The notes beneath the pieces are model-generated. The model saw nothing but the letters and a program-made list of their open reading frames with translations, searched no databases and was not told where the DNA came from. Shown here one piece after another: positions 10,070 to 32,070 of a DNA stretch of 64,000 nt (its first letter is position 1; every line of letters starts with the position of its first letter). Made by a program: the position numbers and the translations under genes. The stretch spans positions 1 through 64,000 of the forward strand of contig NZ_JARXWF010000008.1 in assembly GCF_029892605.1 (NCBI RefSeq), written 5' to 3'. This DNA is from Parabacteroides sp. PM6-13 (GTDB lineage Bacteria > Bacteroidota > Bacteroidia > Bacteroidales > Tannerellaceae).

Positions 10070-10095
10070 ATCTATATCAATTAATTATTATTACT

Positions 10096-11115: not shown

Positions 11116-11140
11116 GTCTATACGTTTTAATGTTGATTTC

Positions 11141-11264: not shown

Positions 11265-11281
11265 ACATTAAAATGTATAGT

Positions 11282-11524: not shown

Positions 11525-11545
11525 TGATACATAAAGACAAATGAG

Positions 11546-12172: not shown

Positions 12173-12364
12173 TCAATCGTCTACCTGTTCTGCCTTGTCG
12201 ATCACCTCAATGATAATATCTTCGCCGATATGGTCGCAAAACACCTGCTGTAATATCTTCCCTCTGCCATCCGTAGTGTTATCAATTACCGTGATAGTGT
12301 GCTGGTCTATCGGGTTGCCCTGAATGTGAGCAATGAGCCGCTTTACTTTCTCTTCACTTGCCAT
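12173..12364 (-). CDS. hypothetical small protein
   Basis: 63 aa, overlapping the upstream ORF. Confidence 0.3.
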   Translation of the reverse strand: MASEEKVKRLIAHIQGNPIDQHTITVIDNTTDGRGKILQQVFCDHIGEDIIIEVIDKAEQVDD

Positions 12365-12611
12365 CTTGCGCTGGTTTTATAACTTTCCATCCGAGTTTTT
12401 CAGACAGATCGTCAATTCTTGATTCTAATTCTTCATCCGTCAATCCTTCCAGTTCAAGAGCGGCAGCAATCTTCTTTGCCATACCTATTGGCATCGGTTT
12501 TAATCCGGTAAACGCTTCATACCACTCTGGAAACTCGCTCGTGTCCAAAACTCCAGTTGCCACAGATGACAACAATTTTGCTTTCTGTTCTTTTGATAGT
12601 TTAATCTTCAT
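12354..12611 (-). CDS. hypothetical small protein
   Basis: 85 aa, overlapping starts/stops in a minus-strand operon. Confidence 0.4.
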   Translation of the reverse strand: MKIKLSKEQKAKLLSSVATGVLDTSEFPEWYEAFTGLKPMPIGMAKKIAAALELEGLTDEELESRIDDLSEKLGWKVIKPAQDGK

Positions 12612-12936
12612 GATTCAAATTATTTAATGTTTGTATTCGCTCTGCCAGCCTATCCACAACCTCATCAGGAGCAGATAGTAACAGCTTCTCTAACTCTTTA
12701 TATTCGCAGGCAATCTGCGCATCAACACTCACAGACTGCTGCTTTGGCACAACGTACTGCATCAATTTCTCAAGTACCTGCACCCTGTCTTTAGGATCTA
12801 ACTCTTTCAAATCCTTTTCAAACTGCACTCGGTTACCATCAATAACCTGCTGAATCCAGCTTTTCAATTCCCCTGTTATCTTATTTGGCACTCCTTTAGG
12901 TCTGCCATTGGGGTTATTCGTCTGTCCTTTCTTCAT
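12601..12936 (-). CDS. hypothetical protein
   Basis: 111 aa. Confidence 0.4.
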   Translation of the reverse strand: MKKGQTNNPNGRPKGVPNKITGELKSWIQQVIDGNRVQFEKDLKELDPKDRVQVLEKLMQYVVPKQQSVSVDAQIACEYKELEKLLLSAPDEVVDRLAERIQTLNNLNHED

Positions 12937-13067
12937 CTTTGTAAATCTTTGTTGTTTTCAAAGCTTCCCGTGTACGCAAATAAGCAATTTTATTTTTCAA
13001 ATGATACCACGATCACCTAAGCGGAGAAAGTGGCTGAAATCTCTACCCTTCTCTCAAATATGAGATT

Positions 13068-13346
13068 CTAAACACCATTATCGTAGTACTGTTTTGCTTT
13101 TTCACGGTCTCGGCAACATTTAGCCCACTTTCCAAAGTCTTCGTTCCCAGGATAGCGAACACACTTTTTGTCCGGCTGTTTATATTCGTTGCCAATCTTA
13201 CGCTTAAAAACTTCGTAGTATATCACGCTCGGATCAGCTTCTAACGTACGACTGTATAGATACATCTCTGTTGCCGGGTTATAGCCTTCTTGTCTGAAGG
13301 TATCGCCGAACTTTGTAAATTCTTTGGGTAGTTCTCTAATATTCAT
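13068..13346 (-). CDS. hypothetical protein
   Basis: 92 aa, immediately downstream of the giant ORF. Confidence 0.4.
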   Translation of the reverse strand: MNIRELPKEFTKFGDTFRQEGYNPATEMYLYSRTLEADPSVIYYEVFKRKIGNEYKQPDKKCVRYPGNEDFGKWAKCCRDREKAKQYYDNGV

Positions 13347-13396
13347 CTGTCTTTATATTATGCCCCCGGATGAAGTTAATCACCCGGAGGTTGTTG

Positions 13397-16300: not shown

Positions 16301-18148
16301 CTTTGAGAGTTTCCCGTAGATTGATTCCAGGTCACTTATTTCATTATCGAGTATCCCTTTTGATTTGCGGATATTCACAACAAGCAGATCGATAGGGTTT
16401 GTTTGGTATGAAGAAGCACCTCCAAACATTCCTTGTGATACATAAACGGTCTTGTTGAATTTATCAATAGCATCCTGTACCTCTTTGCTAAACTCACTTC
16501 CGGAGCTTAATGATTCTTTCAGGGAATCAAGTAAAAGTGTTCCTTGTGCTTCTCCAAACTCTTTATTGAACGATTTGCGGATCTTATCAATGTTCTTCCC
16601 CCATTGCTCGGTGTAATTATCCACAGCAGATTGTGTGCCTTTTTCAATGGCTCTGTCTTTGGCAGATTGGATAGCGGCTTCTGATATGGCTTTATAAGCT
16701 CCTTCTATGTCTTTGAGGGTGCGTATCTCTTCATTTAAGCCATCAAGGTAGTTGCCGTATTTATTGATGATATTGTCCTTTGCTTTTTGATATGCCTCCG
16801 TCCCTTCCTTAGCGTTTTTGAGCCTCCCGAAAAGAATATCAATATTTACAGACTCTTCTTCTGTACTCTTGTTGAAGTCTTTCATTGTCTCCGCAAGCCT
16901 CTTTTGCGATTTCTCTGCCTCGGTTTGATATGTGCTCAATTTGTAGATGCCATAACCAAGACCTACAACTGCTGCTGTAAGCACAACATAAGGATTGGTA
17001 ACTAATAATGCTGCTGAGGCTTTTAATGATTTGGATAGGCTGGCCTGCGCAAGAGTAAACATCTTTGTTCGAGCGGCGGCAATGGCTTCTGCATTGGAAA
17101 GTTGAATACTGGCAGCGGCGGCAAGATGCTTCTCGACTACGGCCTGACGCATGATCTTTGTATTGAGGGACTGCAAAGCGGAGATCGAAATAAGAAGAGC
17201 TTTGTAGCTGCCATAGACAACAACTAATTCCGCTATTGTCTTGCCGATTATCTCGTAGTTCTCAACCATGAGAGTAGCACTCTCTATCGCCTTACCGATA
17301 ACACCTTCCGAGCTTTGACCAATCTCATTAAACATCACCTGAATGTTATCCTTAAGTGCTTCGATCTGCCCTGTAATGGCTTTAGATTGGTTCTCCATCA
17401 ATCCGCCATACATACCACCGGAAGATGTCATGTTCTTAAAGGCCTGTTCAACCTCTTTGAATCCAACCTTCCCGGCAGAGACAAGATCATTTACTTGACC
17501 TTCTGCAACTCCTAATACATTTGCAAGCTCTTTATAGATGGGGATACCACGCCCGGCAAACTGGCGTATATCCATGAGATAAGCCCTGCCTTGCATACGG
17601 AGTGTACCGTACAAATAAACGATGTCTCCGATAGACTGACCTGTTCCGGCTGCCACGTCGCCAAGCATTGTCATCTCCTGAATCACGCTATCCGCTTGCG
17701 ATCCGTATGCTATAAGCTGCTTTGCTGCTTCGGCTGCTGATTGCAAACCGAAAGGAGTACGTGCGGCAAAGTCTGTTAAGTCTCCAATGAGAACTTTAGC
17801 TTTATCACCACTCTTTAGCATAGTACCAAAGGCGATTTCTAATTGCTGGAACTCGCCACGAACATTTACCACTTCTTTTGCAAAAGCTGTGAGGGCTGCT
17901 GTACCACCAATACCGGCTAATGCTTTTTTGAAGTTACTATTAATGGATGCGCCAGCTTTAGAAGCTTCTTCCGCTAAACGGTTAAACTTCCCTTCAAGGG
18001 ATTGCAATTGCTTATCAAGCTTATTGAATGCTTTCGGATCGGCGGCCTTATCCATGCCTGAAAGTTTTGTTTTCAGGTCATCTATTTCTTTTTTTAGCTT
18101 CTTCAATGCCTCAAAATCGGCGCCTACACGAAAATATAATCCACTCAT
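13397..18148 (-). CDS. phage tail tape-measure-domain protein (1583 aa, long coiled-coil)
   Basis: N-terminal region (EFQQLEIAFGTML...LTDFAARTPFG...LIAYG) matches the conserved tape-measure domain of TP901-like phages. The remainder is an extended Lys/Glu-rich coiled coil with two hydrophobic segments. Confidence 0.75.
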   Translation of the reverse strand: MSGLYFRVGADFEALKKLKKEIDDLKTKLSGMDKAADPKAFNKLDKQLQSLEGKFNRLAEEASKAGASINSNFKKALAGIGGTAALTAFAKEVVNVRGEFQQLEIAFGTMLKSGDKAKVLIGDLTDFAARTPFGLQSAAEAAKQLIAYGSQADSVIQEMTMLGDVAAGTGQSIGDIVYLYGTLRMQGRAYLMDIRQFAGRGIPIYKELANVLGVAEGQVNDLVSAGKVGFKEVEQAFKNMTSSGGMYGGLMENQSKAITGQIEALKDNIQVMFNEIGQSSEGVIGKAIESATLMVENYEIIGKTIAELVVVYGSYKALLISISALQSLNTKIMRQAVVEKHLAAAASIQLSNAEAIAAARTKMFTLAQASLSKSLKASAALLVTNPYVVLTAAVVGLGYGIYKLSTYQTEAEKSQKRLAETMKDFNKSTEEESVNIDILFGRLKNAKEGTEAYQKAKDNIINKYGNYLDGLNEEIRTLKDIEGAYKAISEAAIQSAKDRAIEKGTQSAVDNYTEQWGKNIDKIRKSFNKEFGEAQGTLLLDSLKESLSSGSEFSKEVQDAIDKFNKTVYVSQGMFGGASSYQTNPIDLLVVNIRKSKGILDNEISDLESIYGKLSKKEDQKEVAPFVDFDKQLADTKGEIDNLKKNIENLRKGIAPIELKPGEQFDFAKAIEDEVKALQEAEKKLETMTGQDKDAKKSALDTNRLKSETADRLREIEEMSKKLAVEEREAEHELQQQRINLMEEGTDKTLAQINLDYDKRELEIMKRGAALIKQQQELERKTWEAANPDWKDKGMTFTSSVNVIADLPEEKQNLLAGLFQANTADRAKSEKDLLDSVLDKYQDFAKQREKLEEEYNDTVSFLNSQRTEENAEEINRALVVAKKQYEKGLKDINSSEFNELSKASDTFTKLFSNAANMSRKQLKSIIDETKRLIDNPSDLLKGLPFDEIKDIYNALIDKQNELDSRTNYPFSGIVKGLQKLKESAKLSEKAFTEADKAKKKLFEDNAETSRQEGLNYIYDGALEAVQGVSQLSDMIGQLADATGDQSLSDFTSLLKDWGNILEKTISGAKSGGIWGAVAGAVAGIGSSVFNGLIEEEERIRRMQNEQYDWQHRFNLLLSERNYLEEEYSSFFGKRGIEQAIKAYDSYKKTIGDYNDFVNEKLNIKPYGMDSYQGFSLANWSRTYADEVLIDAMKREMTVLQGSLIQTAKHVWYKQGSKDKFTTLFDFAPEIWGGDLNGEFDVEAARLFLETHKEISKELRTQLALAIDQKEAYDEAMKVLDDHIESTFGGIASDLTDIIFDAVRNGSDAWDLFEDSGLKVIDALGKALLQEMILGEYLEQYKPKIRDAFSLGDPKAVQEELLSITSGIFDSLPTVVDSWMSIAKDWDELAKANGWEIDRLKNEASTSDNSLAGALGKANQQSIDLLAGQMGAGRVALERGANAAESIRDILKEGLKVDSEKINAEMNGIMQQIFGGKGFGIDMTAIDSVKDGFQLNRDIMTNSFGELTAIRDLNSKIEQNMIQLNSTSKEIAEANRSIVANTERLSQLEGIAESGKAIAGNTDSAANSLKGSIEVKMKGGGLGL

Positions 18149-18170
18149 GATTCTTCTTATTTATTTGTTA

Positions 18171-18431
18171 TTACTTTTTTATTCCATCCCCGAACAGTTC
18201 TTTGCCCGGGTTCGCCTCTTTCCAGTGATTGATCCCGTCTAACCCCGCATCGCTGGAAAAGTAATCTTCCGTTGACTTGTAGCCCATGAGTTGGAATACA
18301 TCGTCGGTAGAGAACAGCATCTCACCGGTAACTTTATCTTTGGTCGCTCTAATCGTTTTGCCCTTCGCCACTAAAAAGAGATAGTGGCGCAGCTTATCGT
18401 CTTCTTTATACTCTATTAAAATTGGTTTCAT
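18171..18431 (-). CDS. hypothetical small protein
   Basis: 86 aa, directly upstream of the TMP gene. Confidence 0.4.
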   Translation of the reverse strand: MKPILIEYKEDDKLRHYLFLVAKGKTIRATKDKVTGEMLFSTDDVFQLMGYKSTEDYFSSDAGLDGINHWKEANPGKELFGDGIKK

Positions 18432-18450
18432 ATCTTTATCTGTTTGATTG

Positions 18451-18693
18451 TTAGTTTAAACTCCCACTCTCATTTAGCATATCCAAAACCACTTGCTTAT
18501 TGATTTGGCGATCATGTATAGCATCATTTTCGTTTAAAATTGTTTTTGCCAAATCAAATGCATCATTCGTCCGACCTTCGGTTATGGCCTGCATGATCTT
18601 GTAGGCGTTTGATACGTTCCGGCAGATCTCTCCGAATGTCACCTCTAAGGGTATATCCACTAATCTGATTTTTATTTCTTCTTCTGTTTTCAT
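18451..18693 (-). CDS. hypothetical small protein
   Basis: 80 aa with a 4-nt overlap onto the upstream ORF. Confidence 0.4.
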   Translation of the reverse strand: MKTEEEIKIRLVDIPLEVTFGEICRNVSNAYKIMQAITEGRTNDAFDLAKTILNENDAIHDRQINKQVVLDMLNESGSLN

Positions 18694-19193
18694 TTTGTGT
18701 CCTTTTTTATAGTGTGCAAACTGTGCAATTCTTTCAAGAAATCATCATAGCATTTCACCACAGCGTAATGCCCTCCGGCAGCTATGATTTGTTCCTGCAC
18801 TTGCTTCTGAATGTCGCTTTGTTTATCTCGCCCTATCTTGATCTCGAAATTGTAAACTTTGCCATTGTGGGTTACTTGTACATCGGCAATCCCTTTAGTG
18901 CTGCCTGATTTACGCCACATCTTTAGGCGGGCATCATATTGACCTTGTGAGTTCTGCCGTTGGTAAAAAGCTCCGTTAATCTTCGACCATATAGACAGGC
19001 ATTCGGTTAGTCCGTTCGCTGTATCGTCTCTAAATTTCTTTACAAACCGGCAGTTCTCAGGAATGGAACTATTACGATACTTAAACTCGAAATAGTCCTT
19101 CTCCAGTCGCTTAACTGATTCCGGCTTCTGATACCGGGCCACTACTTTACGAGGCTTCTTTTCTTCTCTTGGGATAAAGTCTTGCATATTCAT
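18690..19193 (-). CDS. VRR-NUC domain nuclease (PD-(D/E)xK)
   Basis: GIADVQV...FEIKIGRDKQSDIQKQ fits the VRR-NUC GxPD / ExK / D..S..Q pattern. 167 aa. Confidence 0.5.
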   Translation of the reverse strand: MNMQDFIPREEKKPRKVVARYQKPESVKRLEKDYFEFKYRNSSIPENCRFVKKFRDDTANGLTECLSIWSKINGAFYQRQNSQGQYDARLKMWRKSGSTKGIADVQVTHNGKVYNFEIKIGRDKQSDIQKQVQEQIIAAGGHYAVVKCYDDFLKELHSLHTIKKDTK

Positions 19194-20116
19194 ATAGCTT
19201 GTCGTTTACAGGTGAGTCCATACTGTTTGCAATACCAAAAGAATGTTCTAATGGATTTACGAGCGCAATGCTTCAGGCATCGGTCATATTGCTCATCGCA
19301 CTGCCAGTCCTCATACTTATCAGACTGCCTACTAACAATATGAAAGTAAGCTCTTCCACTCTCGCCAAACTCATTGGCCAGCGATTGACCAATAGCGTAC
19401 CAATCATCATACCGATCTGTCATGTCTATGCCTCGGACTGAAATGTCAGATACCAGCTTGTCTACCCAATACTCTACATCGTTATCCGGATTCACCTCTC
19501 TTGTCTTATATTCCTTCGGCTCGATCATATCGGTAAACACACCAGCCTCTTCATCCATATGAGGAAATTCATCGTATGACGCCCCACGTAGACGGGCAAC
19601 ATCTCTGCATTGTTTATCGACAACCAAACCACGCACTCTCAATACCTCAGCTATTGCCTGAAAATGCTCTTTATGCTTCTCCGGGTTAGCTATCTGTATA
19701 ATCATATACATTCCTTTCCCCGATGCAGATAAAGCGCCATAGCAATAGCCTGGGATATTAGGAAGGTTATGCTTAAGGCGATCCCAGTTCTTTATACTTG
19801 GGTTATCCTGTGCGTCCAGGTCGATGCAGATAAAGCCGGAATGTTTGATTAGGCCTTTATTACTTCGTTTAGAAAATACGCCTGAAACAGTAATGCAGGG
19901 TAGGGATGCCTTTATGCGCCTACGTTCATCTTTATCGGTGCAGCCTCTTACCACTTCAACCTGTCTTCTGTATTCTCCAGACAATAGCCAATCGAATAAG
20001 CTGACGGTCTTTGTAGGAGTGGCATCAAAATAATTTCTAAAAAAAGAGATAGGAACGGTCTCGAACTTTGTCAAAAGGTCGAGCCTCCATATTCTATCTA
20101 AATTGATTATGCTCAT
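19190..20116 (-). CDS. replication/primase-like protein (BT4734-like N-terminal domain + PriCT-like C-terminal domain)
   Basis: LPCITVSGVFSKRSNKGLIKHSGFICIDLD resembles the VirE/BT4734 N-domain. The C-terminus DDWYAIGQSLANEFGESGRAYFHIVS resembles a primase C-terminal domain. Start set at an internal Met; the ORF track starts at 20191. Confidence 0.6.
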   Translation of the reverse strand: MSIINLDRIWRLDLLTKFETVPISFFRNYFDATPTKTVSLFDWLLSGEYRRQVEVVRGCTDKDERRRIKASLPCITVSGVFSKRSNKGLIKHSGFICIDLDAQDNPSIKNWDRLKHNLPNIPGYCYGALSASGKGMYMIIQIANPEKHKEHFQAIAEVLRVRGLVVDKQCRDVARLRGASYDEFPHMDEEAGVFTDMIEPKEYKTREVNPDNDVEYWVDKLVSDISVRGIDMTDRYDDWYAIGQSLANEFGESGRAYFHIVSRQSDKYEDWQCDEQYDRCLKHCARKSIRTFFWYCKQYGLTCKRQAI

Positions 20117-20151
20117 GATAATGCTTATGATAATGATAATGTATATGTATA
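20114..20151. repeat. iteron-like ATGATAATG tandem repeats at the 5' end of the primase-like gene
   Basis: catgataatgcttatgataatgataatgtatatgtata, followed by the ttgaatac x2 direct repeat (20161..20180). Confidence 0.35.
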
Positions 20152-20205
20152 GGGTAGCCGTTGTATTCATTTGAATACTGTTGAATACCAATGTATACCG
20201 TAGTA

Positions 20206-20484
20206 TTATTTATTGCTGTTCCTCCCATCCCAATACTCTTGTATTTTCTTCCTATTGTCCTCTCGTTTCTCTTCATACTTCTTGTTGTCTTCATCTATAA
20301 ACGCTTGGAGCAAGTGAAAAACCACCGAAAGTTTCTCCGTGAAATCAGAAGGGAGTTCACTGCGCCATTGGTAGGCCATAATAGCCATAAATATCTTGCC
20401 ACGTTCGGAATCTGTTAGTATGGAGAGAATTGTCTCAAATTGCTCACGAACGAGTAAGGGTGGTTGTTTAGGTTTATTTGCCAT
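20206..20484 (-). CDS. hypothetical protein
   Basis: 92-aa ORF. Confidence 0.4.
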   Translation of the reverse strand: MANKPKQPPLLVREQFETILSILTDSERGKIFMAIMAYQWRSELPSDFTEKLSVVFHLLQAFIDEDNKKYEEKREDNRKKIQEYWDGRNSNK

Positions 20485-20485
20485 C

Positions 20486-20767
20486 TTATCGCCCTCCTTT
20501 AACCTTAAAGTACCACACTTTATTTTCTTTACTTATTGGGCAAATTCCCTGATGCGTCCGCTCGATCAGTCCGTCATCTTCCAACTGCCGGATAAGTCTT
20601 GTACAGTTAGGCCGGGTTATGCCTGTCGCCTCTGCTGCGTGGTAAGTAGTAGAATGATTGTCAATAAAGAAGGCAAATAAGGCTTGCTTTTGCAAACGGA
20701 TTCGTTTATCTTTGTGGTGATCTTCTTGCCCTTGCTGCCCGGCGGGGCTTTCTTTTTTTAGTTTCAT
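20486..20767 (-). CDS. HTH DNA-binding protein (winged-helix/MarR-like)
   Basis: FFIDNHSTTYHAAEATGITRPNCTRLIRQLEDDGLIER is an HTH. 93 aa. Confidence 0.5.
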   Translation of the reverse strand: MKLKKESPAGQQGQEDHHKDKRIRLQKQALFAFFIDNHSTTYHAAEATGITRPNCTRLIRQLEDDGLIERTHQGICPISKENKVWYFKVKGGR

Positions 20768-21066
20768 GCCCTGCGCCCTCCTTCTTTACGTCCAGCTAAC
20801 TCAAGTGCTAGCTCGGCATCAACTACAATCTTGCGCCCTATCTGCTTAATTGCTTTGTCTATTTTCCCGCTTGCCTTGATCCGGCTTGCGGTAGGAATAG
20901 AACAGTTAAATAGTCGGGCAATTCCAGATACACCATAGACATATTGTTTCTCTTGTGCTGTTTGAGCATTCACGTTCTGTCTAAAGTTTCCATGCTCCTG
21001 CAAGAAAAGAAACTCTTCACCAGTCATTTGCCAAATTGGTTTGGCTCTTAATTCTACAATATTCAT
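20764..21066 (-). CDS. excisionase-like HTH protein (MerR/HTH_17-like)
   Basis: VYGVSGIARLFNCSIPTASRIKASGKIDKAI is a phage excisionase-type HTH. 100 aa, overlapping the upstream ORF. Confidence 0.5.
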   Translation of the reverse strand: MNIVELRAKPIWQMTGEEFLFLQEHGNFRQNVNAQTAQEKQYVYGVSGIARLFNCSIPTASRIKASGKIDKAIKQIGRKIVVDAELALELAGRKEGGRRA

Positions 21067-21274
21067 AATCTACTTTTTTATTATCGTTAATTACTTGGTG
21101 CGTCCACCTGTTAGTAATCGATTACGATAGCAAATGTATAATTCCGAGTATCAGTAGAAAAGGAAGAATTGTGGGAATAAATATAAAAACAAAAAAGGCT
21201 AACTATCAATGTGTTAACCTTGCGTTTTTTGTGATTTGGGAAAGATTGTTTGGCGGTTTGGGAATATTTATGAA

Positions 21275-22237
21275 TTATTTTGATTCCTCGTAGTATTTGG
21301 TGATTGTGTTTTTAAAGGTTTTTGGGAAGCTATCTTCTAATAGTTTAATCTTTTTCACATTATTACTGTCTTTATTTACTTGTGGAAACACCCCTGAATC
21401 TATTAGTGGCATTACCGTTTTTGCGATAATATCCGCCGTTACACCTTTCTTTATTTTTAGTTTATCAAGAGTATATCCATGTTCTAAAAATTGCTTTATG
21501 GTTTCTTTGTTGTCATCACAAATAAATTGTAACTCAGTAATATGCTTTGATATATCCCTTGGCTCTTTCTTTGACTTAGGTAGAACCCTGTATTTGTCAT
21601 ATGATCCGAAGTTTTCTTCATAGTCACTATTTTCTTTTAAGATGTCTACTATGTCGATATCGAAATGAGCATAAATTGATGAAATGTCATAAAGAATTTG
21701 TTCTATGTCATTTGTTAAAAAAGTAACGTGATATCCGTTTTTTTCTAATGTTTCCAAACTGAGATAGGAGCAATATAATAGAGCATCTAACTGCTTTGCA
21801 AATAATTTAGCATATAAGATGCGATTGTGATGAGATTCTATTTTTAGCAGTTTCTCTGTTAGGTTTTTCTCCAATGCTAACCCTACTTTATAATTGAGAC
21901 CCTCGACAATTTTCCCCTCTATGTAGTAGAATCTTGATTTAGCATCCTCTATTTTCTTACGGAATGCGCTGGGCTTTTTTTTGCTTACGTCTGGCATTCG
22001 ATGTTTGGCTTCGTCCGAGTCAAGATATTTAAGATGTTCGTCCATGTTGAGAAGCTTCCACAATACGTCTGGATTTTTCATAAAAAAAACATAGTGCTGT
22101 ATTTGCTTATCCAGTAGCTTTACAATCGTGCGATAAAGGAAGCCATAAAATCCCTTTTGGTTTTTATAACGATCATAATGAAAGGCGTCATCGATTAGAA
22201 CATTTATTTCATCAAATACATATTCTAAATATTTCAT
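21275..22237 (-). CDS. AT-rich hypothetical protein (element cargo gene next to integrase)
   Basis: 320 aa, Lys/Ile/Tyr-rich with no recognisable motif. Clearly lower GC than its neighbours. Overlaps the integrase stop by 4 nt. Confidence 0.5.
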   Translation of the reverse strand: MKYLEYVFDEINVLIDDAFHYDRYKNQKGFYGFLYRTIVKLLDKQIQHYVFFMKNPDVLWKLLNMDEHLKYLDSDEAKHRMPDVSKKKPSAFRKKIEDAKSRFYYIEGKIVEGLNYKVGLALEKNLTEKLLKIESHHNRILYAKLFAKQLDALLYCSYLSLETLEKNGYHVTFLTNDIEQILYDISSIYAHFDIDIVDILKENSDYEENFGSYDKYRVLPKSKKEPRDISKHITELQFICDDNKETIKQFLEHGYTLDKLKIKKGVTADIIAKTVMPLIDSGVFPQVNKDSNNVKKIKLLEDSFPKTFKNTITKYYEESK

Positions 22238-23565
22238 ATTCCATCAAATTTACTCATTGCACTTGCTTTTATCTCATCCGCTATGTCTATGTACGGCTTC
22301 ATTGCTTTGTAGTCGCTATGCCCTGTCCACTTCATTACAACTTGTGCCGGGATACCTAATGACAACGCATTACAGATAAATGTTCGTCGTCCGCAATGCG
22401 TACCGATTAAAGCGTACTTGGGTGTAACCTCATCTATACGTTCATTTCCTTTATAGTATGTTTCCCGGATTGGTTCGTTTAGTTCTGCCAGCTCACAAAG
22501 CTCTTTTAGGAACTCATTCATCTTTTGGTTACTGATAACCGGCAGCACTTTACTATTAGGTAAATGCACGTCTTTGTACTTCTCCAGTATTGCCCGGCTA
22601 TGACTATTCAGCTCAATGATGAGGCTATCGGCTGTTTTTACGGTTGTTATTTCGATATGGTCCTCTTTCACATCACTACGTTTGAGGTTGTACACATCGG
22701 AATACCGTAGGCCGGTGAAGCATTGGAACAGGAATACATCCCGGACACGTTCAAGGTATTGTTTACCTTCCGGTATCTTATATTCTCTAAGCTGGGTAAG
22801 TTCTTTCCATGTGAGGAAGATTATCTTCTTTTTAGTCGTTTTCAATTTCGGCTTGAACGCCTCGAAAGAAGTGTTTTCGCAATGTCCTTTAGAAACTGCC
22901 CAGCGAAGGAACCATTTTAATAGATTGATCTGTTTTTCTATGGTGCTATTCCTCATCCCCACACTATAAAGGTAAGACACATATTCTCGAAGTACATTTT
23001 CATTCAACCTATCAAAGGTTAATCCAGGATCAAAATCTTTTATGTGTCCTTTTACTACATTGAGTTTTTTTATAGTTCCTAATGCCCAGTTGTTCTGCTC
23101 CCCACATTCAGCCATAAAGAGGTCAAAGTACAGATGAATGTTTTTTTGTTCTTGTCTATCATCGCCATTTTTCTTCCCAAAAGCATCTTTTAATTGATCC
23201 GGTGTCGGCGTCGTATCCTGTACCTCAAACTCCTTAAAGACAGCCTCTATTTTAGAATATAGATCCGATAGATCCGAGTTGATTTCGGACGCACTTTGTT
23301 TAAGTTTATTTGTACATCCTTTTTTTACTCGCTGTTTATCCAAATCCCATTTTGGCGCATCAATTCGGTAGCCGGTGGTAAACTCTATTCGGTTGCCACA
23401 ATAGACTACACGCATACGGATAGGCACATTCTCTGTAATAGGAATACCGTTTTTCTTTCGGCTTTCAAGTGAAAAGACTATATTTCGCTTTATATTCATG
23501 GGTGCAAAAGTGGGTGTAAAATTAAATCCACACCCAAAAGTACACCCATTTTTTGAGATATGCAA
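22234..23565 (-). CDS. int: site-specific tyrosine integrase
   Basis: 443 aa. N-terminal SAM-like and core-binding region plus a C-terminal catalytic domain (HCGRRTF, RYSDVYNLK) typical of Bacteroides phage/CTn integrases. Adjacent to attR. Confidence 0.9.
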   Translation of the reverse strand: MHISKNGCTFGCGFNFTPTFAPMNIKRNIVFSLESRKKNGIPITENVPIRMRVVYCGNRIEFTTGYRIDAPKWDLDKQRVKKGCTNKLKQSASEINSDLSDLYSKIEAVFKEFEVQDTTPTPDQLKDAFGKKNGDDRQEQKNIHLYFDLFMAECGEQNNWALGTIKKLNVVKGHIKDFDPGLTFDRLNENVLREYVSYLYSVGMRNSTIEKQINLLKWFLRWAVSKGHCENTSFEAFKPKLKTTKKKIIFLTWKELTQLREYKIPEGKQYLERVRDVFLFQCFTGLRYSDVYNLKRSDVKEDHIEITTVKTADSLIIELNSHSRAILEKYKDVHLPNSKVLPVISNQKMNEFLKELCELAELNEPIRETYYKGNERIDEVTPKYALIGTHCGRRTFICNALSLGIPAQVVMKWTGHSDYKAMKPYIDIADEIKASAMSKFDGI

Positions 23566-23668
23566 CGATATTCTAATATATTTTATTTATCTTTGCGCTT
23601 CATAAAAGGCTGGTTAATAGCGTGATTTTAAGATGATATGATATTTTGCAATATAAAAGGTTAAAGAG

Positions 23669-23685
23669 CGATATGCTCCACAAAT
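23669..23685. repeat. attR core (cgatatgctccacaaat)
   Basis: Perfect 17-bp direct repeat of 9391..9407. Confidence 0.8.
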
Positions 23686-23715
23686 CATCAAAAAAGGAGG
23701 CTTTCTTTCGAAAGT

Positions 23716-23766
23716 CTCCTTTTTTGATTACCTCTTCCTGCGGATAAACAGCACTGTCAGGGCGAC
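23716..23766. repeat. 51-bp direct repeat copy 1 (ctccttttttgattacctcttcctgcggataaacagcactgtcagggcgac)
   Basis: 50/51 identical to 24274..24324. Begins with the descending arm of a terminator-like hairpin (aaaaaaggaggctttctttcgaaagtctcctttttt). Confidence 0.8.
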
Positions 23767-23919
23767 AAATAAGGCTCACTCCCAAAAGCAAAACCCCACA
23801 ATAGCATTTGTAAAAACAAAAAACATATTGTATATTTGTACTTAATATGACCTCCCACGCTTCCCGTCAGAACAGCGCACCCGGGGAGGTCTTCGAGTTT
23901 CTATATCATTCCTACTACT

Positions 23920-24270
23920 ATGAAATACATTAAGCAACCTCTCTCCATTCAGCAGCAAATAGACAAACTAAAATCCAGAGGATTGATCATTGATAATGAA
24001 GAAATTGCAGCTGGCTATCTATCGAATATTAGCTATTATCGCTTAAGAGCTTACACCTATCCATTCCAAAACAATACAGATGAAGAAAAAGATCACCACT
24101 TCACTCGAAGCGATATACATTTCAGAGACATCCTTGACATAATCAGCCCTCAGAGTGATTTCAAGAAAAATCTTATTAGCATTATTCAAGACGGTGGGAA
24201 TTTATTAAAAATCAAAGATATGGGATTCCCTGAAAACTGGGCACATCTTGATGTGTGGAAAGAAATATAA
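23920..24270 (+). pseudogene. Abi_2 (AbiD/AbiF-like) abortive-infection protein, N-terminal fragment only
   Basis: IQQQIDKLKSRGLIIDNEEIAAGYLSNISYYRLRAYTYPF matches the Abi_2 family N-terminus. The ORF stops at 116 aa against about 300 aa for the family. Confidence 0.5.
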
Positions 24271-24273
24271 AGC

Positions 24274-24324
24274 CTCCTTTTTTAATTACCTCTTCCTGCG
24301 GATAAACAGCACTGTCAGGGCGAC
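24274..24324. repeat. 51-bp direct repeat copy 2
   Basis: See 23716..23766. Starts 3 nt after the Abi fragment stop codon. Confidence 0.8.
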
Positions 24325-24369
24325 GAAGAAACAAACCACCACCAAACATTGGGGGATAAAGTCTACTTA

Positions 24370-25077
24370 TCAAGCATTCATTTTCTGCTTATTCTTGTCA
24401 TAAGGGGTTTCGCAATATTCACAAAAAGGTGCGGTAGTGCCATCATAGACAACTTCATTAAAAGCTCCACAAGCTTTACAGTCCCAGGAAATAACTTGCT
24501 CTAAGGCGATTGGTTTCTTCAAATTATTCATATTAAAAAAGAAATTCACATAATCTTCTGATGGGGAAAGAGTTAGTATCCCACAATCCTGAAAATCCTG
24601 CAGAATGGGCCAAAGTTTTTCAAAAGAATATTTTTCTCCTTTATGATTTATCTGAAAAGTATGTTTGTTGATCCTATTCTTCTCCAATTTCAAAATTTCT
24701 AATAAAGAATCTGCCAAAGATGTATATTGTTTATATTTCCCATATTCGATTAACATGAAAAAACCTGCGATCACCCACGAAAGAACCATTGAACGGGGAA
24801 GATACTCTTCAAAAGAGCTAAAAGAAATACCCTCCTCTTTCAGAGGCAAAAACAGGCAAAAGCCAATAGTAAATATCAAAAAACCCCAGAACAGAGAGGA
24901 GCCCAATGATATTTTATCTGTAATCAAAAACCGGGGGACCTTGCGTAAAGAATTCTTTGAGAAGGCCCGATATATAGCGACCAACGCACCTAAAGGGGCA
25001 AAAATAATGGAGAATAAATACATCAAGATAGCACCTATCCCTACTTTATGCACTATTACAAATTTATTTAACATCAT
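24370..25077 (-). CDS. membrane protein with C-terminal zinc ribbon (partner of SPFH/COG4260 protein)
   Basis: Three to four hydrophobic helices. C-terminal CKACGAFN...CEYCETPYDK zinc ribbon. Tightly linked to the upstream gene. Start trimmed to an internal Met to avoid overlap. Confidence 0.5.
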   Translation of the reverse strand: MMLNKFVIVHKVGIGAILMYLFSIIFAPLGALVAIYRAFSKNSLRKVPRFLITDKISLGSSLFWGFLIFTIGFCLFLPLKEEGISFSSFEEYLPRSMVLSWVIAGFFMLIEYGKYKQYTSLADSLLEILKLEKNRINKHTFQINHKGEKYSFEKLWPILQDFQDCGILTLSPSEDYVNFFFNMNNLKKPIALEQVISWDCKACGAFNEVVYDGTTAPFCEYCETPYDKNKQKMNA

Positions 25078-25085
25078 ATTTCCGT

Positions 25086-26384
25086 TTATCTCAAATGGGT
25101 TCCACAAGTGGAACAATATTTTGATTCTGAGTCAGTCGCTTTCCCGCAATTAGGACATTCCTTTTCCAATTTTTCCCCACACTCCGGACAAAACTTACCT
25201 CCGGGACTAAGAGTAAAATTACATACAGGACATTTTTTAGGCATAGCACCACCACATTTGGTACATATCATATTGTTTTCATCATTATCTGCACCACATG
25301 TAGGACAAGGATAATACAAATCTCCGCAGTCAGGGCAATATTTTGAATTCCGAAAAATTTTCCCGCCACATTTATTGCAAATAGTAGTGGCCGTTTTTTC
25401 TACTGCTGAAGCAGAGGCTATACCTTTACCACAGATGGGGCAAAAATGATAATGATCCGATATGGAGGCATTACAATAGGAACATGCTCTCTGTTTTCCG
25501 ACTACTTGTTGATTTACATTTTGCATCATGCCACCAACAGCACCTCCTACCCCAAATCCCATACCTAAACCCATACCTGCATTCATGACAGAACCGGTTA
25601 TTCCTTCATTTTTTGAGGCATTCTCCAGCACATCAAATGAACGTTGTTCTTGATAATTAAACCCCAAAAGATCCATTTCGGCTTTTCTGGATAATAATTG
25701 TTTTAAGTGATTTACAGCCGTATCCTCTTCAGGAATGCTAATAGAATTCGTATAAAAATTCAATAACTTAACGCCATACTCTTCGAATAAACGTTCAATA
25801 TCCTTTTTAATATGCTGAGATATATCAAGCAGGTTTGCCGAGATTTCTAACAAGCTGATCTTCTCTTCAAGTATTTTCTTTGATATGGAAGATTGTATAT
25901 GGCTTAACAATATCCCCCTGAAACACTGTATTAAATTCCTACTATTAAACGAAGGCAACGTACCAACCAGTTTTATCAAAAAAGATTCCGCATCAGAGAT
26001 CTGAATACCCATTTGTCCATTAGCCCGTACCGGAACCATTACCCCATAGACGGGATCTTTCAATTGGATAGGTATAGGTGTCCCCCATTTCACATCTAAA
26101 TTCATTACTTTATTTACAAACCAGACTTCAGCAGTAAAGGGGTTCTTTCCTCCAAAAGGGATGCCATAAAAATTTTCTAATAAAGGTATATTCTCGGTAG
26201 ATAAAACATGTTTTCCGGCAGAGAATTTTTGAAGCAATTTCCCCTTTCTAAACAGAACGGCCTCTTGGGATTCATTTACTATCAATTGTGTAAATGTTGT
26301 CAGGTTTTCCTCTGGAAATTTATAAGCAAAAATATCAGGAGTTCCATCCCATTTTACTACATCTATAAATGCCATAATGATCAT
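25086..26384 (-). CDS. SPFH/Band-7-like (COG4260 'virion core protein'-like) protein with Gly-rich linker and five C-terminal zinc ribbons
   Basis: N-terminus FIDVVKWDG...LIVNESQEAVLFRKGK...TENIPLL...PFTAEVWFVNKV...KWGT matches COG4260/SPFH. GMGLGMGFGVGG linker. Five CxxC-(n)-CxxC units. Start chosen at an internal Met; the upstream ORF extension crosses an IS-like repeat. Confidence 0.65.
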   Translation of the reverse strand: MIIMAFIDVVKWDGTPDIFAYKFPEENLTTFTQLIVNESQEAVLFRKGKLLQKFSAGKHVLSTENIPLLENFYGIPFGGKNPFTAEVWFVNKVMNLDVKWGTPIPIQLKDPVYGVMVPVRANGQMGIQISDAESFLIKLVGTLPSFNSRNLIQCFRGILLSHIQSSISKKILEEKISLLEISANLLDISQHIKKDIERLFEEYGVKLLNFYTNSISIPEEDTAVNHLKQLLSRKAEMDLLGFNYQEQRSFDVLENASKNEGITGSVMNAGMGLGMGFGVGGAVGGMMQNVNQQVVGKQRACSYCNASISDHYHFCPICGKGIASASAVEKTATTICNKCGGKIFRNSKYCPDCGDLYYPCPTCGADNDENNMICTKCGGAMPKKCPVCNFTLSPGGKFCPECGEKLEKECPNCGKATDSESKYCSTCGTHLR

Positions 26385-26462: not shown

Positions 26463-26532
26463 TGAACCGGCAGTTGAAACTGCCGGCAAGAGATAGGCCT
26501 GCGGCCACTCACTCTGTTCGCAGAGAAGAGAG
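26463..26532. repeat. solo IS-terminus-like repeat with palindrome ccggcagttgaaactgccgg (copy A)
   Basis: About 52 bp near-identical to 32004..32070 and related to the left terminus of the IS at 27511..27555. Confidence 0.7.
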
Positions 26533-26896: not shown

Positions 26897-27241
26897 ATGG
26901 ATAATTTGGAATACAAAGGATACTTTGGAAGTGTCGAATATAACAAAACAGACGATTGCCTGGTTGGTAAAGTTCTTGGCATGAGCAAAGATTCTATCAC
27001 CTATGAGGGAAAGGATATTACAGAACTCAAAGCCGATTTTGAGGCAGGAATAGACAGCTATATTGAAGGATGTGAAGAATTAGGCATTAAGCCGAGAAAA
27101 GCCTTTAGCGGCTCTCTAAATGTGCGCATTTCATCCGAAATACATAGCCGGGTTGCTATGCTTGCGGAAAAAGCGGGTATTTCGATTAATGCTTTCATCA
27201 AAGAAACATTGGAGGAAAAAGTTTCAACTGCCGGCTTTTAA
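26897..27241 (+). CDS. hicB: type II antitoxin HicB family
   Basis: N-terminal HicB fold (YKGYFGSVEYNKTDDCLVGKV) and a C-terminal RHH-like DNA-binding tail (ISINAFIKETLEEK). Confidence 0.65.
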   Translation: MDNLEYKGYFGSVEYNKTDDCLVGKVLGMSKDSITYEGKDITELKADFEAGIDSYIEGCEELGIKPRKAFSGSLNVRISSEIHSRVAMLAEKAGISINAFIKETLEEKVSTAGF

Positions 27242-27510
27242 GTTTGCCATTCTCATAAATATGATCTATATACCCTCCTATATGGTCTATAAAGATCTCT
27301 TTCGAGTGGGCATATTTGCGGATATGCGTATAGAGTTCATACCGATGATGTGAGTTTTGCAAATAGGGAATCCTGTTTTTAGTAATCCAGACACAATGAA
27401 TAGGAATAGATAAGTAAGGCATAGTTTTTGGTTTTGTGTTAATGACATAAATATAGGAATAATATTGTTTAAACAAATTGCACACTATACACCTCTTTAG
27501 AGCAAGCGAA

Positions 27511-29333
27511 GCAAGTGGCCGCAGGCCTATCTTTTGCCGGCAGTTTCAGAGACTGTGTAAAAAACCATATTCACCATGCCTGCCTGTAGTGCTTGCGTAG
27601 TGTACACGCATAAAAAGATGAGAGCGTGAGCCACCGGTTCATTCTTAACAATAACCTTGTGTCTCATTTTTGAGGGAGAGCCTGCTTGGACAAATGATTT
27701 TCCAAAGTATATTTTGCTCTTTTCCGACAAAAAAGGCTCCCCAGAGTATGTTTTTTGCCTTTTGGGCATAATTTGCTATTCTTTCCAATAATTTGGACAT
27801 GTCTTCTATATTCATCAAGCGCTTGAGGTTATAGCAAGATGCGTACAAGTCTATTTCAGCCTGTACTTTTCTTTTGCCTGTCAATAGGAGTGGGACTTTG
27901 CCCATCCACCGTTTCATGGTTCCAAAAATATGTTCGATATGATCCTTCCTTTCTTTGATAAGAGCCTGGTATTTTTCTGTCTCCATGCGCTTCGCATATT
28001 CCTCCCGGAAGGGATCCTGTATCTTGACTTTCAGTCGCCTACCATTTCTAAATGTGGTACATCTTCCAAATAAAGCACAATGCCTGCAATCGGAGGCTTT
28101 AGCTTGATAAATAAGATATTCAGCACTCTCTTGCTTGACATTCTTTGGCTTGCGTTTCAATAATTTTCCTTTGCTGCAAGTGTAGCTATCTGTGGACTGG
28201 TCATATCTAAATTCAACGCCTGCTTTCTTGTCATGACTACTTGAGGTCCCTTCTTTCAATGGTATAGCGCAAGATGTTATCCCGTTTGATTCGATGGATT
28301 TGATTTGATCAATATTATCATATCCTTTATCGGCTTCTACTATTTCGGGAACAAGGCCCAGTTGCTCTTTGGTCTTGTTTACATTATTTTCAATACAGTC
28401 TAGGTCAATCACATCGGGAGTCAACTCGGCTAAAACAATCATTTTATGTTTAGCATCTGTTCCGCCTTGAAGGTTGTAAGCGGGAATAAATCCGTCCCGG
28501 CTTTTCATCAAGTGGGCATCCGGATCTGTAGGACAATAACTGCTATGATCACTCTGTTTGATTTGACTCTTAATTTCTTCCAGCTCTTTTATCTTTTGCC
28601 GCAGACTGACGATTTCTTCCAACAAAGATTTATTGATATCCGCGCTCAGTTCACAGCTATCGAGTGCTTCGGTCAGTTCGTCTGTGTGATCATTGTTGTT
28701 TAACTCAGAAAGCCAAGTATGTAATTGGTCTTCCATTTTCTTTATGCGACTAGACAATGCCTTCTCTGTTAAAACCTTTTCTTTAGAAACACATGCCTTT
28801 ATTTTACTCCCGTCATAAATAATCTTTTCTCCACTGATAAAACCTTCGTCGCGCAAAAAGCGGCGAAAACTCAGCGTTACGTAACGAATTGCTTCTGTAT
28901 TATCTTTACGATAGTCCGCAATTGTTTTATGGTCAGGGTGAAGATCATGCAACAACCATTTTACTTCGATATTGCGATAGGTTTCAGATTCCAATCGACG
29001 ACTACTGCTTATCCGATTTAAATAACCATACAGATACAGTTTCAGTAAATCACAAGGATGGTATGACTTACGACCTTTTTCTTTGGTGCCTCTATATTGA
29101 AACTTTTCCGGGGATTGCCCATAAAGCATCTCAACCAAAGCATCTATCAGGCGAACGTAATTCTGTTCACCGATACTCTCGTCAAGGGTATTGAAAAGAG
29201 AGGCTTGATGGCGAGAAACGCCAGTTTTGTAATGCATAGCTGTTGTTTGTTTGTCTGAATAAATGTAAGAAATTTTATCCAATTTAGCTAATTTGCCACA
29301 ATGCATTTTTACACAGTCTCTTCAACTGCCGGA
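27511..29333. mobile_element. IS1182-family insertion sequence
   Basis: Single 553-aa DDE transposase flanked by imperfect inverted termini (27511..27555 and 29311..29333, cacagtctct..aactgccgg). Confidence 0.65.
27645..29306 (-). CDS. IS1182-family transposase (DUF772 N-domain + DDE)
   Basis: SYHPCDLLKLYLYGYLNRISSSRRLE is the IS5/IS1182 N-terminal domain. DDE region downstream. Possible alternative start at Met24. Confidence 0.8.
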   Translation of the reverse strand: MHCGKLAKLDKISYIYSDKQTTAMHYKTGVSRHQASLFNTLDESIGEQNYVRLIDALVEMLYGQSPEKFQYRGTKEKGRKSYHPCDLLKLYLYGYLNRISSSRRLESETYRNIEVKWLLHDLHPDHKTIADYRKDNTEAIRYVTLSFRRFLRDEGFISGEKIIYDGSKIKACVSKEKVLTEKALSSRIKKMEDQLHTWLSELNNNDHTDELTEALDSCELSADINKSLLEEIVSLRQKIKELEEIKSQIKQSDHSSYCPTDPDAHLMKSRDGFIPAYNLQGGTDAKHKMIVLAELTPDVIDLDCIENNVNKTKEQLGLVPEIVEADKGYDNIDQIKSIESNGITSCAIPLKEGTSSSHDKKAGVEFRYDQSTDSYTCSKGKLLKRKPKNVKQESAEYLIYQAKASDCRHCALFGRCTTFRNGRRLKVKIQDPFREEYAKRMETEKYQALIKERKDHIEHIFGTMKRWMGKVPLLLTGKRKVQAEIDLYASCYNLKRLMNIEDMSKLLERIANYAQKAKNILWGAFFVGKEQNILWKIICPSRLSLKNETQGYC

Positions 29334-29357: not shown

Positions 29358-29837
29358 ATGAAAAGAATACTTTGTCTATTATTCTGTTTACTGTTAGTAA
29401 CAGCTTGTGAAAGAGAAAAAACACCGCCGTTTGATCATCCGATTATGGGAATTTGGGATGCTAAAGAATATTATATCCCTTATGACGGGAGGACTATTCA
29501 AGGTTCCGGAGAGGGTTTTTCTTTTGATGAATACTGGAATGTTATTCAGGTAGCAAGCAACGGACGTTTTATCTATTCTTCTAAATTCGAATTAATAGAT
29601 GACAAATATCTCTTCCTCAACTTCAACGGGAAATATAAATTTGATGGTAATCTAGAAGGTGGAAGTTGCTATTTGGAAATATTAGAATTTACTCAAGACT
29701 CCTTAAAACTTTACGAACACTGGGACAATCCTCTCCAAACCCGTATCTGGACCTTATATCTTCCTGTTTTTTTACTTTGCATCATTACAACATCAGTTTC
29801 AAGGTTGATAACTTCACTTGGAAACCCTTCTTTCTGA
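29358..29837 (+). CDS. lipoprotein of unknown function
   Basis: MKRILCLLFCLLLVTACERE is a lipobox. 159 aa. Confidence 0.5.
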   Translation: MKRILCLLFCLLLVTACEREKTPPFDHPIMGIWDAKEYYIPYDGRTIQGSGEGFSFDEYWNVIQVASNGRFIYSSKFELIDDKYLFLNFNGKYKFDGNLEGGSCYLEILEFTQDSLKLYEHWDNPLQTRIWTLYLPVFLLCIITTSVSRLITSLGNPSF

Positions 29838-29983: not shown

Positions 29984-30247
29984 ATGAGCATGCGAACACG
30001 TTATGAGGGTTCCTTTTACAGCGTAAAAGGGATTCTCTACCGGATCGAGCTCCTACAGGAAGGGTTTATGGGGAATGCTTCTACTGTAGCATTCGGCAGC
30101 GCTCCGTTGGAAATCGAATGGACAGAAACGGATAAACTGGAACCGGTACAAAGCAGTAAGGCTACGCTTACCCTTTTCTCGGATAACGACCGGCAGTTTG
30201 TTAATCTCTACACGGTTAAAGCCGGTGATATCCGCCTGGATGAATGA
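29984..30247 (+). pseudogene. gene fragment, possibly frameshifted (33-aa ORF 29886..29987 overlaps in another frame)
   Basis: Short ORF with no stop-proximal features. An upstream mini-ORF ends with its TGA overlapping the ATG in a different frame. Confidence 0.25.
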
Positions 30248-31223: not shown

Positions 31224-31817
31224 ATGGCTCGTTATAAATTAGTACGTAATCCTAACCTGGGAGAAGAGGGAAAAGAAATGCCTTATCATGCTCGTTATGT
31301 GGCGTATGGAACGGTGGGGTTGGATGAGATGATTGAAAAAATGTCGGACCGGACATCGTTTTCCAGTGCCGATATCAAAGGGATGGCCCAATTGTTTCAA
31401 GATATGATTGTCGAGGAGTTACGGTTTGGTAACAATGTAGAAATAGATGGGATCGGTATTTTTACAGCCTCACTTCAATGCCCTCCGGTAATGAACAAAA
31501 AGGAGATCAGGGCAGAGTCCATCAGTTTCCGCACCGTGAAATTCCGCCCCTCGATTAAATTATGTAAACGTTTGAAATCACTGCCGCTTTATAAAGCGCC
31601 GGAAGAAAAAGAAAAACAGTCGTTCACTCGGGAAGAGAGACGACTGCGGGTATTGGATTATCTTACGCAAAAAGAGCGGATAACAGGGAGTGAATATATG
31701 CGGTTGAACCATTGCAGCCGCGCTTGTGCCAGCCGAGACCTTATCGATTTCCGGGAAGAGGGCCTGGTCAAACGACAAGGTAGGGGGCCGACACTCTATT
31801 ATGTAAAGATGCAGTAA
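31224..31817 (+). CDS. HU-like (Bacteroides histone-like) DNA-binding domain protein with C-terminal winged-helix
   Basis: N-terminal YKLVRNPNLGEEGKEMPYHARYVAYGTVGLDEMIEKMSDRTSFSSADIKG is typical of the Bacteroidales HU-family protein. C-terminal region RITGSEYMRLNHCSRACASRDLIDFREEGLV. Confidence 0.5.
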   Translation: MARYKLVRNPNLGEEGKEMPYHARYVAYGTVGLDEMIEKMSDRTSFSSADIKGMAQLFQDMIVEELRFGNNVEIDGIGIFTASLQCPPVMNKKEIRAESISFRTVKFRPSIKLCKRLKSLPLYKAPEEKEKQSFTREERRLRVLDYLTQKERITGSEYMRLNHCSRACASRDLIDFREEGLVKRQGRGPTLYYVKMQ

Positions 31818-32003: not shown

Positions 32004-32070
32004 CAAGCAGTTTCAACTGCCGGCAAGAGATAGGCCTGCGGCCACTCACTCTGTTCGCAGAGAAGAAGCG
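32004..32070. repeat. solo IS-terminus-like repeat (copy C) with palindrome gcagtttcaactgc
   Basis: aactgccggcaagagataggcctgcggccactcactctgttcgcagagaaga is shared with 26463..26532. Confidence 0.7.

Follow-up and report, generated by a model that had tools for sequence, protein, structure and literature searches.

In the first 64,000 nucleotides of contig NZ_JARXWF010000008.1 of Parabacteroides sp. PM6-13 (hereafter the window, meaning this whole stretch of DNA), two head-to-tail genes on the minus strand, here called gene A and gene B, make up an operon in its two-component Bacteroidota form; this operon is widespread, uncharacterised and built around an SPFH protein related to YdjI (SamI) of Bacillus subtilis. 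Gene A (25086..26375; 429 aa from the ATG at 26375) encodes a YdjI-like SPFH protein that is soluble and ends in five zinc ribbons, and gene B (24370..25077) encodes a 235-aa membrane partner with three predicted transmembrane (TM) helices, a small, putatively cytoplasmic alpha/beta domain and a C-terminal zinc ribbon. Both open reading frames (ORFs) are present at these coordinates. Gene A is a YdjI-like member of the Band_7_1 family, and its operon is a paralogous variant with partners of its own, not the PspA-YdjGHI system. The operon, which appears to be undescribed in the literature searched, is conserved in hundreds of species, including many gut Firmicutes, and is defined here by an invariant five-ribbon tail, unannotated membrane partners and the lack of PspA. 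We regard the pair as a co-conserved membrane module that is plausibly stress-related; its classification as a defence-island system is not supported.

The SPFH protein and its membrane partner

Every aligned homologue of gene A begins with MA(F/L/I)IDVVKW (28 of 28), and for this reason its start is most likely at 26375 and not at the earlier position 26384, which would add the residues MII (432 aa). The SPFH domain (Pfam PF13421, Band_7_1; 25725..26315, minus strand, residues 24-220 in the 432-aa numbering) scores 149.1 bits against a cut-off of 24. It is followed on the same strand by a Gly/Met-rich, glycine-zipper-like motif (25515..25601, approximately residues 262-290, GAGMGLGMGFGVGGAVGGMM) and by an array of five tandem CxxC-n-CxxC zinc ribbons (25089..25484, residues 301-432). 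The five units are legible directly in the sequence, residues 297-431 match the Pfam families DZR (three stretches), Zn_Ribbon_1 (three stretches), Zn_ribbon_15, Zn_ribbon_3 and DZR_2, and all 20 ribbon cysteines are invariant in a cross-phylum alignment of 29 sequences. In the same alignment G270, G272, G276 and G280 (GAGMGLGMGFGVGG) are invariant, and M267, G274, M275 and G278 are conserved in at least 90% of the sequences. In fact, the GxGxGxGxG run is among the best conserved stretches of the protein and is also its most hydrophobic segment. Since four of its glycines are invariant across phyla, the region that a preliminary description, drawn from the DNA sequence, had taken for a mere Gly-rich linker is a conserved motif and not a spacer, and it may serve in membrane contact or oligomer packing. 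The same description had recognised the SPFH domain, the five ribbons and the membrane zinc-ribbon partner, all of which are confirmed here.

The closest characterised relative of gene A is YdjI (SamI), encoded in the pspA-ydjGHI (samGHI) operon, which was recovered from a B. subtilis-type metagenome contig (locus L096) by means of a published ydjI primer. The two proteins are 25% identical over 238 aa (BLASTP, E=3e-23), with the ribbons matching as well, and they belong to the same Pfam family, YdjI scoring 146.9 bits against Band_7_1. Likewise, both are soluble and devoid of a TM segment, the maximal 19-residue Kyte-Doolittle mean in gene A being 1.19, reached at the Gly/Met motif and below TM grade. 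Both also present the same succession of an SPFH domain, a Gly/Met-rich low-complexity stretch and C-terminal zinc ribbons of the CPxCG type, of which YdjI has one and gene A five invariant copies. Each of the two operons encodes membrane proteins, one of them bearing a zinc ribbon (YdjG and gene B, respectively).

The AlphaFold 2 (AF2) model of gene A has a mean predicted local distance difference test score (pLDDT) of 72, with values of 80-93 in the SPFH and helical parts (residues 100-230) and below 50 in the Gly/Met motif. When compared with the PDB by Foldseek, this model matches the cages of HflK/C, stomatin, prohibitin, QmcA-YbbJ and flotillin over approximately 230-260 columns (E 1e-8 to 1e-5), and a sequence search of the PDB with gene A returned no match. 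The likeness of its fold to SPFH cages suggests assembly into a ring or cage, and gene A is probably oligomeric.

Gene B starts at an ATG (25077) located 8 nt past the stop of gene A; the translational link proposed in the preliminary description thus holds as tight coupling, and an overlap would arise only if an upstream TTG at 25116 were the start. Its hydrophobicity profile shows two strong segments and a third, weaker one. The AF2 model, of low confidence (pLDDT 61), displays three TM helices, a long helix, a small alpha/beta unit and a terminal ribbon. The first loop is rich in Lys and Arg, the second is acidic and the region past the third TM helix is basic, a charge pattern that, on inspection for positive-inside topology, would place the C-terminal domain in the cytoplasm. 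The C-terminal zinc ribbon (24403..24486, minus strand; W-x-C-x2-C-G-A-x-N ... C-E-Y-C) consists of columns that are invariant in two alignments, and W64, D161, C200, C203, G204, C219 and C222 are invariant in the family alignment of gene B.

Searches of Pfam, NCBIfam and PADLOC with gene B gave nothing above any curated cut-off, a word-index search retrieved the protein itself alone and the profile version of that search only seven matches. An exhaustive phmmer search of 1.84 billion representative proteins, on the other hand, found 22 full-length relatives of approximately 225 aa, and together with local hidden Markov model (HMM) searches of the fetched loci it revealed a superfamily, so that the idea of gene B as an orphan was rejected. 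In Bacteroidota-type loci, gene A is directly followed by one to three genes of 204-249 aa without a Pfam match above threshold, and these align with gene B over the full length. In Firmicutes and Deltaproteobacteria, the family profile of gene B also finds the TM and zinc-ribbon proteins encoded past gene A (E 1e-17 to 1e-5), in many cases with the larger part of the profile aligned, and in the Firmicutes proteins it covers most of the length (E 1e-17 to 1e-8).

Conservation of the operon

A search of 5.8 billion clustered proteins yielded 3898 clusters of gene A relatives at E<=1e-5. The best 120 of these are all approximately 430 aa long, with 93-100% query coverage and 47-62% identity, and the named relatives come from Lachnospiraceae, Oscillospiraceae, Ruminococcus, Fusibacter, Erysipelotrichaceae and Deltaproteobacteria. 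A scan of one genome per GTDB species located relatives in at least 573 species, mostly Firmicutes; the best 80 of these belong for the most part to Paenibacillus, Clostridia and Oscillospiraceae, alongside some Deltaproteobacteria and Synergistaceae and one Alistipes.

ORFs were called and clustered in 85-88 gene A loci, nine of them of the Bacteroidota type (including the window), and co-occurrence was measured from the gene A side and by four reverse look-ups from the gene B family. Three clusters recur: the SPFH protein with five zinc ribbons (85 loci), a protein of approximately 232 aa with four TM segments and a C-terminal coiled coil (the 4-TM protein, 71 loci) and the TM and zinc-ribbon protein (70 loci by BLAST clustering). 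The next largest cluster is present in 12 loci, and no flanking family besides the operon's own genes recurs in more than 12 of 85. In 74 of the 88 loci, the HMM detects at least one gene B-like gene that shares the strand of gene A and lies no more than 4 kb downstream; several of the 14 loci without such a call are contig ends or contain divergent copies. The gaps that follow gene A are mostly 2-20 nt. Among Bacteroidota-type loci the gene B profile matches after gene A in eight of nine, the ninth (L092) having a divergent TM and zinc-ribbon gene in the position of gene B. The reverse look-ups agree, as gene A is immediately upstream in every retrievable context of the gene B family, and the co-conservation of the two genes, named as a check in the preliminary description, is therefore supported.

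The 4-TM gene, present in 71 of the 88 loci overall, is absent from all nine Bacteroidota-type loci, and consequently the window holds a reduced two-gene form of the operon. Where present (loci L012-L090; for example L088:6316-7014 and L021:3767-4456), the 4-TM protein carries a conserved YSDP motif in its C-terminal coiled coil; it belongs to no Pfam family and gives a single sub-threshold match, to Phage_holin_6_1 (E=1.3e-3). In Deltaproteobacteria the TM and zinc-ribbon partner is enlarged (L050:6338-7630, L085:7934-9934, L089:7878-9896 and L036:7557-8453). The partners in L050, L085 and L089 (430-672 aa) display weak similarity to B. subtilis YdjG (E 1e-7 to 3e-5), and those in L050 and L085 bear an N-terminal ribbon, while the L036 partner (298 aa) bears Sel1 repeats. 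A scan of the larger partner variants for enzymatic domains found none, only Sel1/TPR repeats, and no gene for an enzyme, nuclease, protease, transporter or PspA is conserved with the operon in the surveyed loci. In ten Paenibacillus species the operon occupies one syntenic site and is flanked by the same genes, a sign of a chromosomal position that is stable and vertically inherited.

Genomic surroundings and the defence question

The preliminary description had based a role in defence on the neighbours of the pair, and all of these were verified by Pfam, PADLOC or inverted repeats. They comprise an N-terminal fragment of AbiD/Abi_2 (a truncated gene, 23920-24270), HicA and HicB, a Gp49 (HigB/RelE-like) toxin with an HTH_3 antitoxin and an insertion sequence (IS; 27537-29332), whose 32-nt terminal inverted repeats are 88% complementary and which encloses a DDE_Tnp_1_6/DUF772 transposase of 553 aa (27645-29306, minus strand). 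On the other side of the AbiD/Abi_2 fragment lies a prophage-like integrative element (9381-23685) inserted in tRNA-Ala (9329-9403) and delimited by attachment (att) repeats: a second copy of the 3' end of the tRNA gene (9381-9407) stands at 23659-23685, the two sharing a 17-nt exact core (CGATATGCTCCACAAAT). This element encodes an integrase (22234-23565) adjoining the repeat at 23659-23685, a tape-measure protein (13397-18148), a PriCT-2/BT4734-like primase (19190-20191), DUF3853 and DUF6291. Between the integrase and DUF3853 it also contains a 320-aa ORF (21275-22237, minus strand), over which a 1-kb window has a G+C content (GC) of 0.32; this ORF matched nothing in Pfam, PADLOC or NCBIfam and may be uncharacterised cargo of the element. 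The SPFH pair is located 0.7 kb beyond attR, outside the region bounded by the att repeats, and its assignment to the prophage as cargo was accordingly rejected.

The pair itself belongs to a second low-GC mosaic (23.7-32.07 kb; GC 0.386), which holds REP-like (repetitive extragenic palindrome-like) repeats, a fragment of a Y1 transposase, the IS and the two toxin-antitoxin pairs. The GC of the pair is 0.35-0.37 and that of the core genome 0.48-0.49. Given this low GC and the location 0.7 kb outside attR, the cassette was probably acquired horizontally in this genome, into a tRNA-Ala-linked variable region; two metagenome contigs contain the pair together with HicAB at 100% identity. The toxin-antitoxin, IS and prophage neighbours are thus explained by a tRNA-Ala-linked integration hotspot and are not a property of the pair.

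Several smaller features of the mosaic were recorded. A 62-nt direct repeat, 94% identical between its copies (23711-23772 and 24269-24330), brackets the truncated AbiD/Abi_2 gene, and its second copy lies directly downstream of the stop of gene B; it could be the remnant of an earlier insertion or deletion, or belong to a family of repeat elements. A 60-nt REP-like element with a CCGGCAGTT..AACTGCCGG hairpin is present in three copies (26470-26529, plus strand; 27486-27548, minus; 32007-32066, plus). The first two are inverted around hicAB and the Y1_Tnp (IS200-like) fragment (27198-27485, minus strand), an arrangement that resembles the units formed by REP elements and their associated tyrosine transposases (REP/RAYT), and the third marks the right edge of the low-GC island. 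Rfam contains no family for these local repeats. Also in the island are a 159-aa ORF (29358-29837, plus strand) with a signal-peptide- or lipoprotein-like N-terminus and an 87-aa ORF (29984-30247, plus strand), both without a family match, and, at its right end, an HU-HIG protein (31224-31817, plus strand) in which an HU domain is fused to a winged helix-turn-helix.

Compared with PADLOC-DB v2.0 at E<=0.01, gene A and gene B matched no family. Defence context was sampled in 141 flank proteins from 19 taxonomically spread loci (four genes on either side), and strong matches to defence families flank two of the 19 (Wadjet in one and Cas1 in another, among the best 25 of the 144 matched PADLOC families), a small sample whose result is indicative; one further locus is flanked by a generic SNF2 helicase. 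In Pfam the same flank proteins fall into heterogeneous, unrelated housekeeping families. The surroundings of the eight other Bacteroidota-type loci hold no defence families; they comprise SusC/D, PorV, alginate-lyase and glycoside-hydrolase genes (polysaccharide-utilisation loci), a BatA/MoxR operon, UvrD, HhH-GPD, corrinoid methyltransferases and peptidase M48, as well as redoxin, DoxX, MarC and TPR-OmpA genes. Phage and plasmid records contained no full-length five-ribbon form, only distant matches to the SPFH domain alone, and a relative of gene A is encoded on 5 of 2.9 million viral contigs, so the proposal that the pair is phage or plasmid cargo was rejected. A literature search on SPFH, zinc ribbons and defence found nothing relevant. 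The enrichment in defence islands expected in the preliminary description was thus not observed, the pair occurring elsewhere in housekeeping contexts; of the membrane-associated defence or stress module envisaged there, the defence part is unsupported and the stress part fits the homology with YdjI/SamI. More generally, toxin-antitoxin and IS genes next to a locus in just one genome are a poor argument for a role in defence.

Possible functions and relation to known SPFH systems

In B. subtilis, YdjI is soluble and forms membrane foci only with the membrane proteins YdjG and YdjH; it interacts with YdjH and PspA, forms higher oligomers and has been proposed to restrain SamGH signalling (PMC8581546; bioRxiv 10.64898/2026.02.06.704340). 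Because soluble YdjI reaches the membrane only through partners encoded in its operon, which it restrains or organises, we lean by analogy towards a model in which gene B would act as a membrane receptor and dock a gene A oligomer at the inner face of the cytoplasmic membrane. Ribbon-to-ribbon or ribbon-to-domain interactions might provide the contact between the two. The outcome would be a scaffold beneath the membrane for organising or monitoring the membrane state, in line with the proposal for YdjI/SamI, and its role would lie in envelope stress or membrane homeostasis rather than in phage defence.

Several points weigh against this docking model, beginning with the fact that the docking and scaffold steps are put forward by analogy alone and that the gene B structure model is of low confidence. 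The partners are not homologous to YdjG and YdjH save for one zinc ribbon. According to Ravi et al. (PMC11237479), YdjG combines a pair of zinc ribbons with an NTF2-like domain and a TM segment, and YdjH has a TPM domain; the order in YdjG, with N-terminal ribbons and a C-terminal TM segment, is the reverse of that in gene B, where N-terminal TM helices precede a small domain and a C-terminal ribbon. The alignment between gene B and YdjG is limited to the second ribbon of the latter (34 columns, hhalign probability 78%), and YdjH, a TPM_phosphatase protein, has no match in any of the 88 loci (0/88). A linkage to PspA, considered because of YdjI, was rejected: phmmer with the PspA from L097 found a homologue in 1 of 88 loci, approximately 6 kb from the SPFH gene, and none in the region of the window. 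Conversely, the operons outside Bacteroidota add the 4-TM coiled-coil protein, which B. subtilis ydjGHI lacks. With unlike partners and PspA absent, the downstream function may differ from that of YdjGHI. Gene B also diverges much faster, as pairs of loci that share 52-62% identity in gene A share 23-35% in gene B, and it is often tandemly duplicated, with one to four gene B-like genes per locus. In five of eight Bacteroidota-type loci (L003, L008, L010, L093 and L094) the operon has a GC 3-10 points lower than its flanks, and in three high-GC loci of this type the two are equal. This low GC may reflect repeated horizontal transfer of the cassette, or merely the AT-rich codon usage of membrane proteins. 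Taken together, fast divergence, tandem duplication and low GC make a conflict-type role possible, and the sample that speaks against a defence context is, as stated above, a small one.

A further reading takes the operon, with the 4-TM coiled-coil protein as a member outside Bacteroidota, for a self-contained class of PspA-independent SPFH machine. In it a sub-membrane ring with a multivalent zinc-ribbon crown would dock on ribbon-bearing membrane receptors and either sense or remodel the membrane or act in a conflict such as the entry of phages or toxins, with a function unlike that of YdjGHI in both cases. The conflict variant is suggested by the rapid divergence and tandem duplication of gene B and by the patchy distribution in Bacteroidota, which resembles that left by horizontal gene transfer. 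We consider such a machine possible but doubtful.

An anti-phage or abortive-infection module, in which the SPFH zinc-ribbon protein senses infection and the membrane protein, joined in Firmicutes by the holin-like 4-TM protein, permeabilises the membrane, would account for the AbiD fragment, HicAB, HigB/HigA-like genes, IS and prophage near the pair in the window, for Wadjet and Cas1 at two of the sampled loci and for the divergence and duplication of gene B; the sub-threshold holin match of the 4-TM partner and an operon GC below that of the flanks in several loci point in the same direction. Against it stand the blank PADLOC result for both proteins, the housekeeping genes around all eight other Bacteroidota-type loci, the lack of a recurrent defence neighbour in the surveyed loci, the syntenic site in ten Paenibacillus species and the near absence from phage, plasmid and viral records. 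In addition, the identity of 47-62% that gene A retains across phyla exceeds the usual conservation of conflict genes, and the Bacteroidota form is devoid of the 4-TM protein, which together leave this explanation very unlikely.

Gene B, with three predicted TM segments and a small soluble C-terminal domain encoded beside an SPFH gene, is similar in layout to the short NfeD proteins of SPFH-NfeD operons, and the fold of gene A is similar to those in the HflK/C-FtsH and QmcA-YbbJ assemblies. Both features favour a quality-control unit in which a gene A cage would enclose or regulate a protease, transporter or other client encoded elsewhere, with gene B as an NfeD-like partner. Nevertheless, gene B as an NfeD protein is unsupported, as it matches neither NfeD (PF01957) nor any other Pfam family at E<=0.01 and its profile search of the PDB returns generic zinc ribbons and not YbbJ or YuaF. 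There is no conserved protease or transporter gene nearby, gene A is devoid of the membrane anchor of HflK/C, QmcA and flotillins, and we regard this alternative as unlikely, if less so than an anti-phage module. Zinc ribbons are often nucleic-acid binders, and the ribbon array of gene A together with a winged-helix-like domain of gene B could accordingly form a membrane-tethered regulatory device that binds DNA or RNA, for tethering or for signalling to transcription. The helix and beta-hairpin unit ahead of the ribbon in the gene B model is in keeping with this device, as are the global transcriptional changes that follow the loss of SamI in B. subtilis and the naming of the YdjG ribbon as TF_Zn_Ribbon by Popp et al. 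(PMC9239133). However, the structure model in question is of low confidence, Pfam and NCBIfam detect no helix-turn-helix or other DNA-binding family in gene B, the DZR/Zn_Ribbon_1 ribbons of gene A are of a kind often met in membrane-associated proteins whose role is unknown, and the operon has no conserved regulator or target gene, all of which make a nucleic-acid-binding device improbable.

The docking of a gene A oligomer by gene B is therefore the reading that we prefer, and its place among SPFH systems can be outlined. Bacterial SPFH proteins are seen as cage-like organisers of membrane proteins, and few of their partner systems have been studied, namely HflK/C-FtsH, QmcA-YbbJ, the flotillins and YdjGHI. 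With HflK/C, stomatin, prohibitin and flotillin, gene A shares the SPFH1/2 and helical regions, which align structurally although the sequence similarity is below the threshold of the PDB search. Unlike those cages, it has neither a TM segment nor a hairpin anchor, and it carries the Gly/Met motif and the zinc-ribbon array in place of their C-terminal cap region. The SPFH-NfeD pairs (QmcA-YbbJ in Escherichia coli, FloT-YuaF and FloA-NfeD2 in B. subtilis) have in common with genes A and B the SPFH fold and the adjacency of the SPFH gene to a small multi-TM partner with a soluble C-terminal domain. They differ in that gene B bears no detectable NfeD or oligonucleotide/oligosaccharide-binding (OB) fold signature, that gene A has no membrane anchor and that both proteins carry zinc ribbons. 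The same SPFH domain as in gene A is found in the Band_7_1 proteins that are fused to SHOCT, a small C-terminal module thought to serve in oligomerisation or binding (Eberhardt et al. 2013, PMC3581485), SHOCT standing where gene A has its five-fold ribbon array. The result does not amount to a surprising new principle; by analogy with YdjI, the operon would rather give the SPFH field a concrete second case in which dedicated membrane receptors recruit a soluble SPFH protein.

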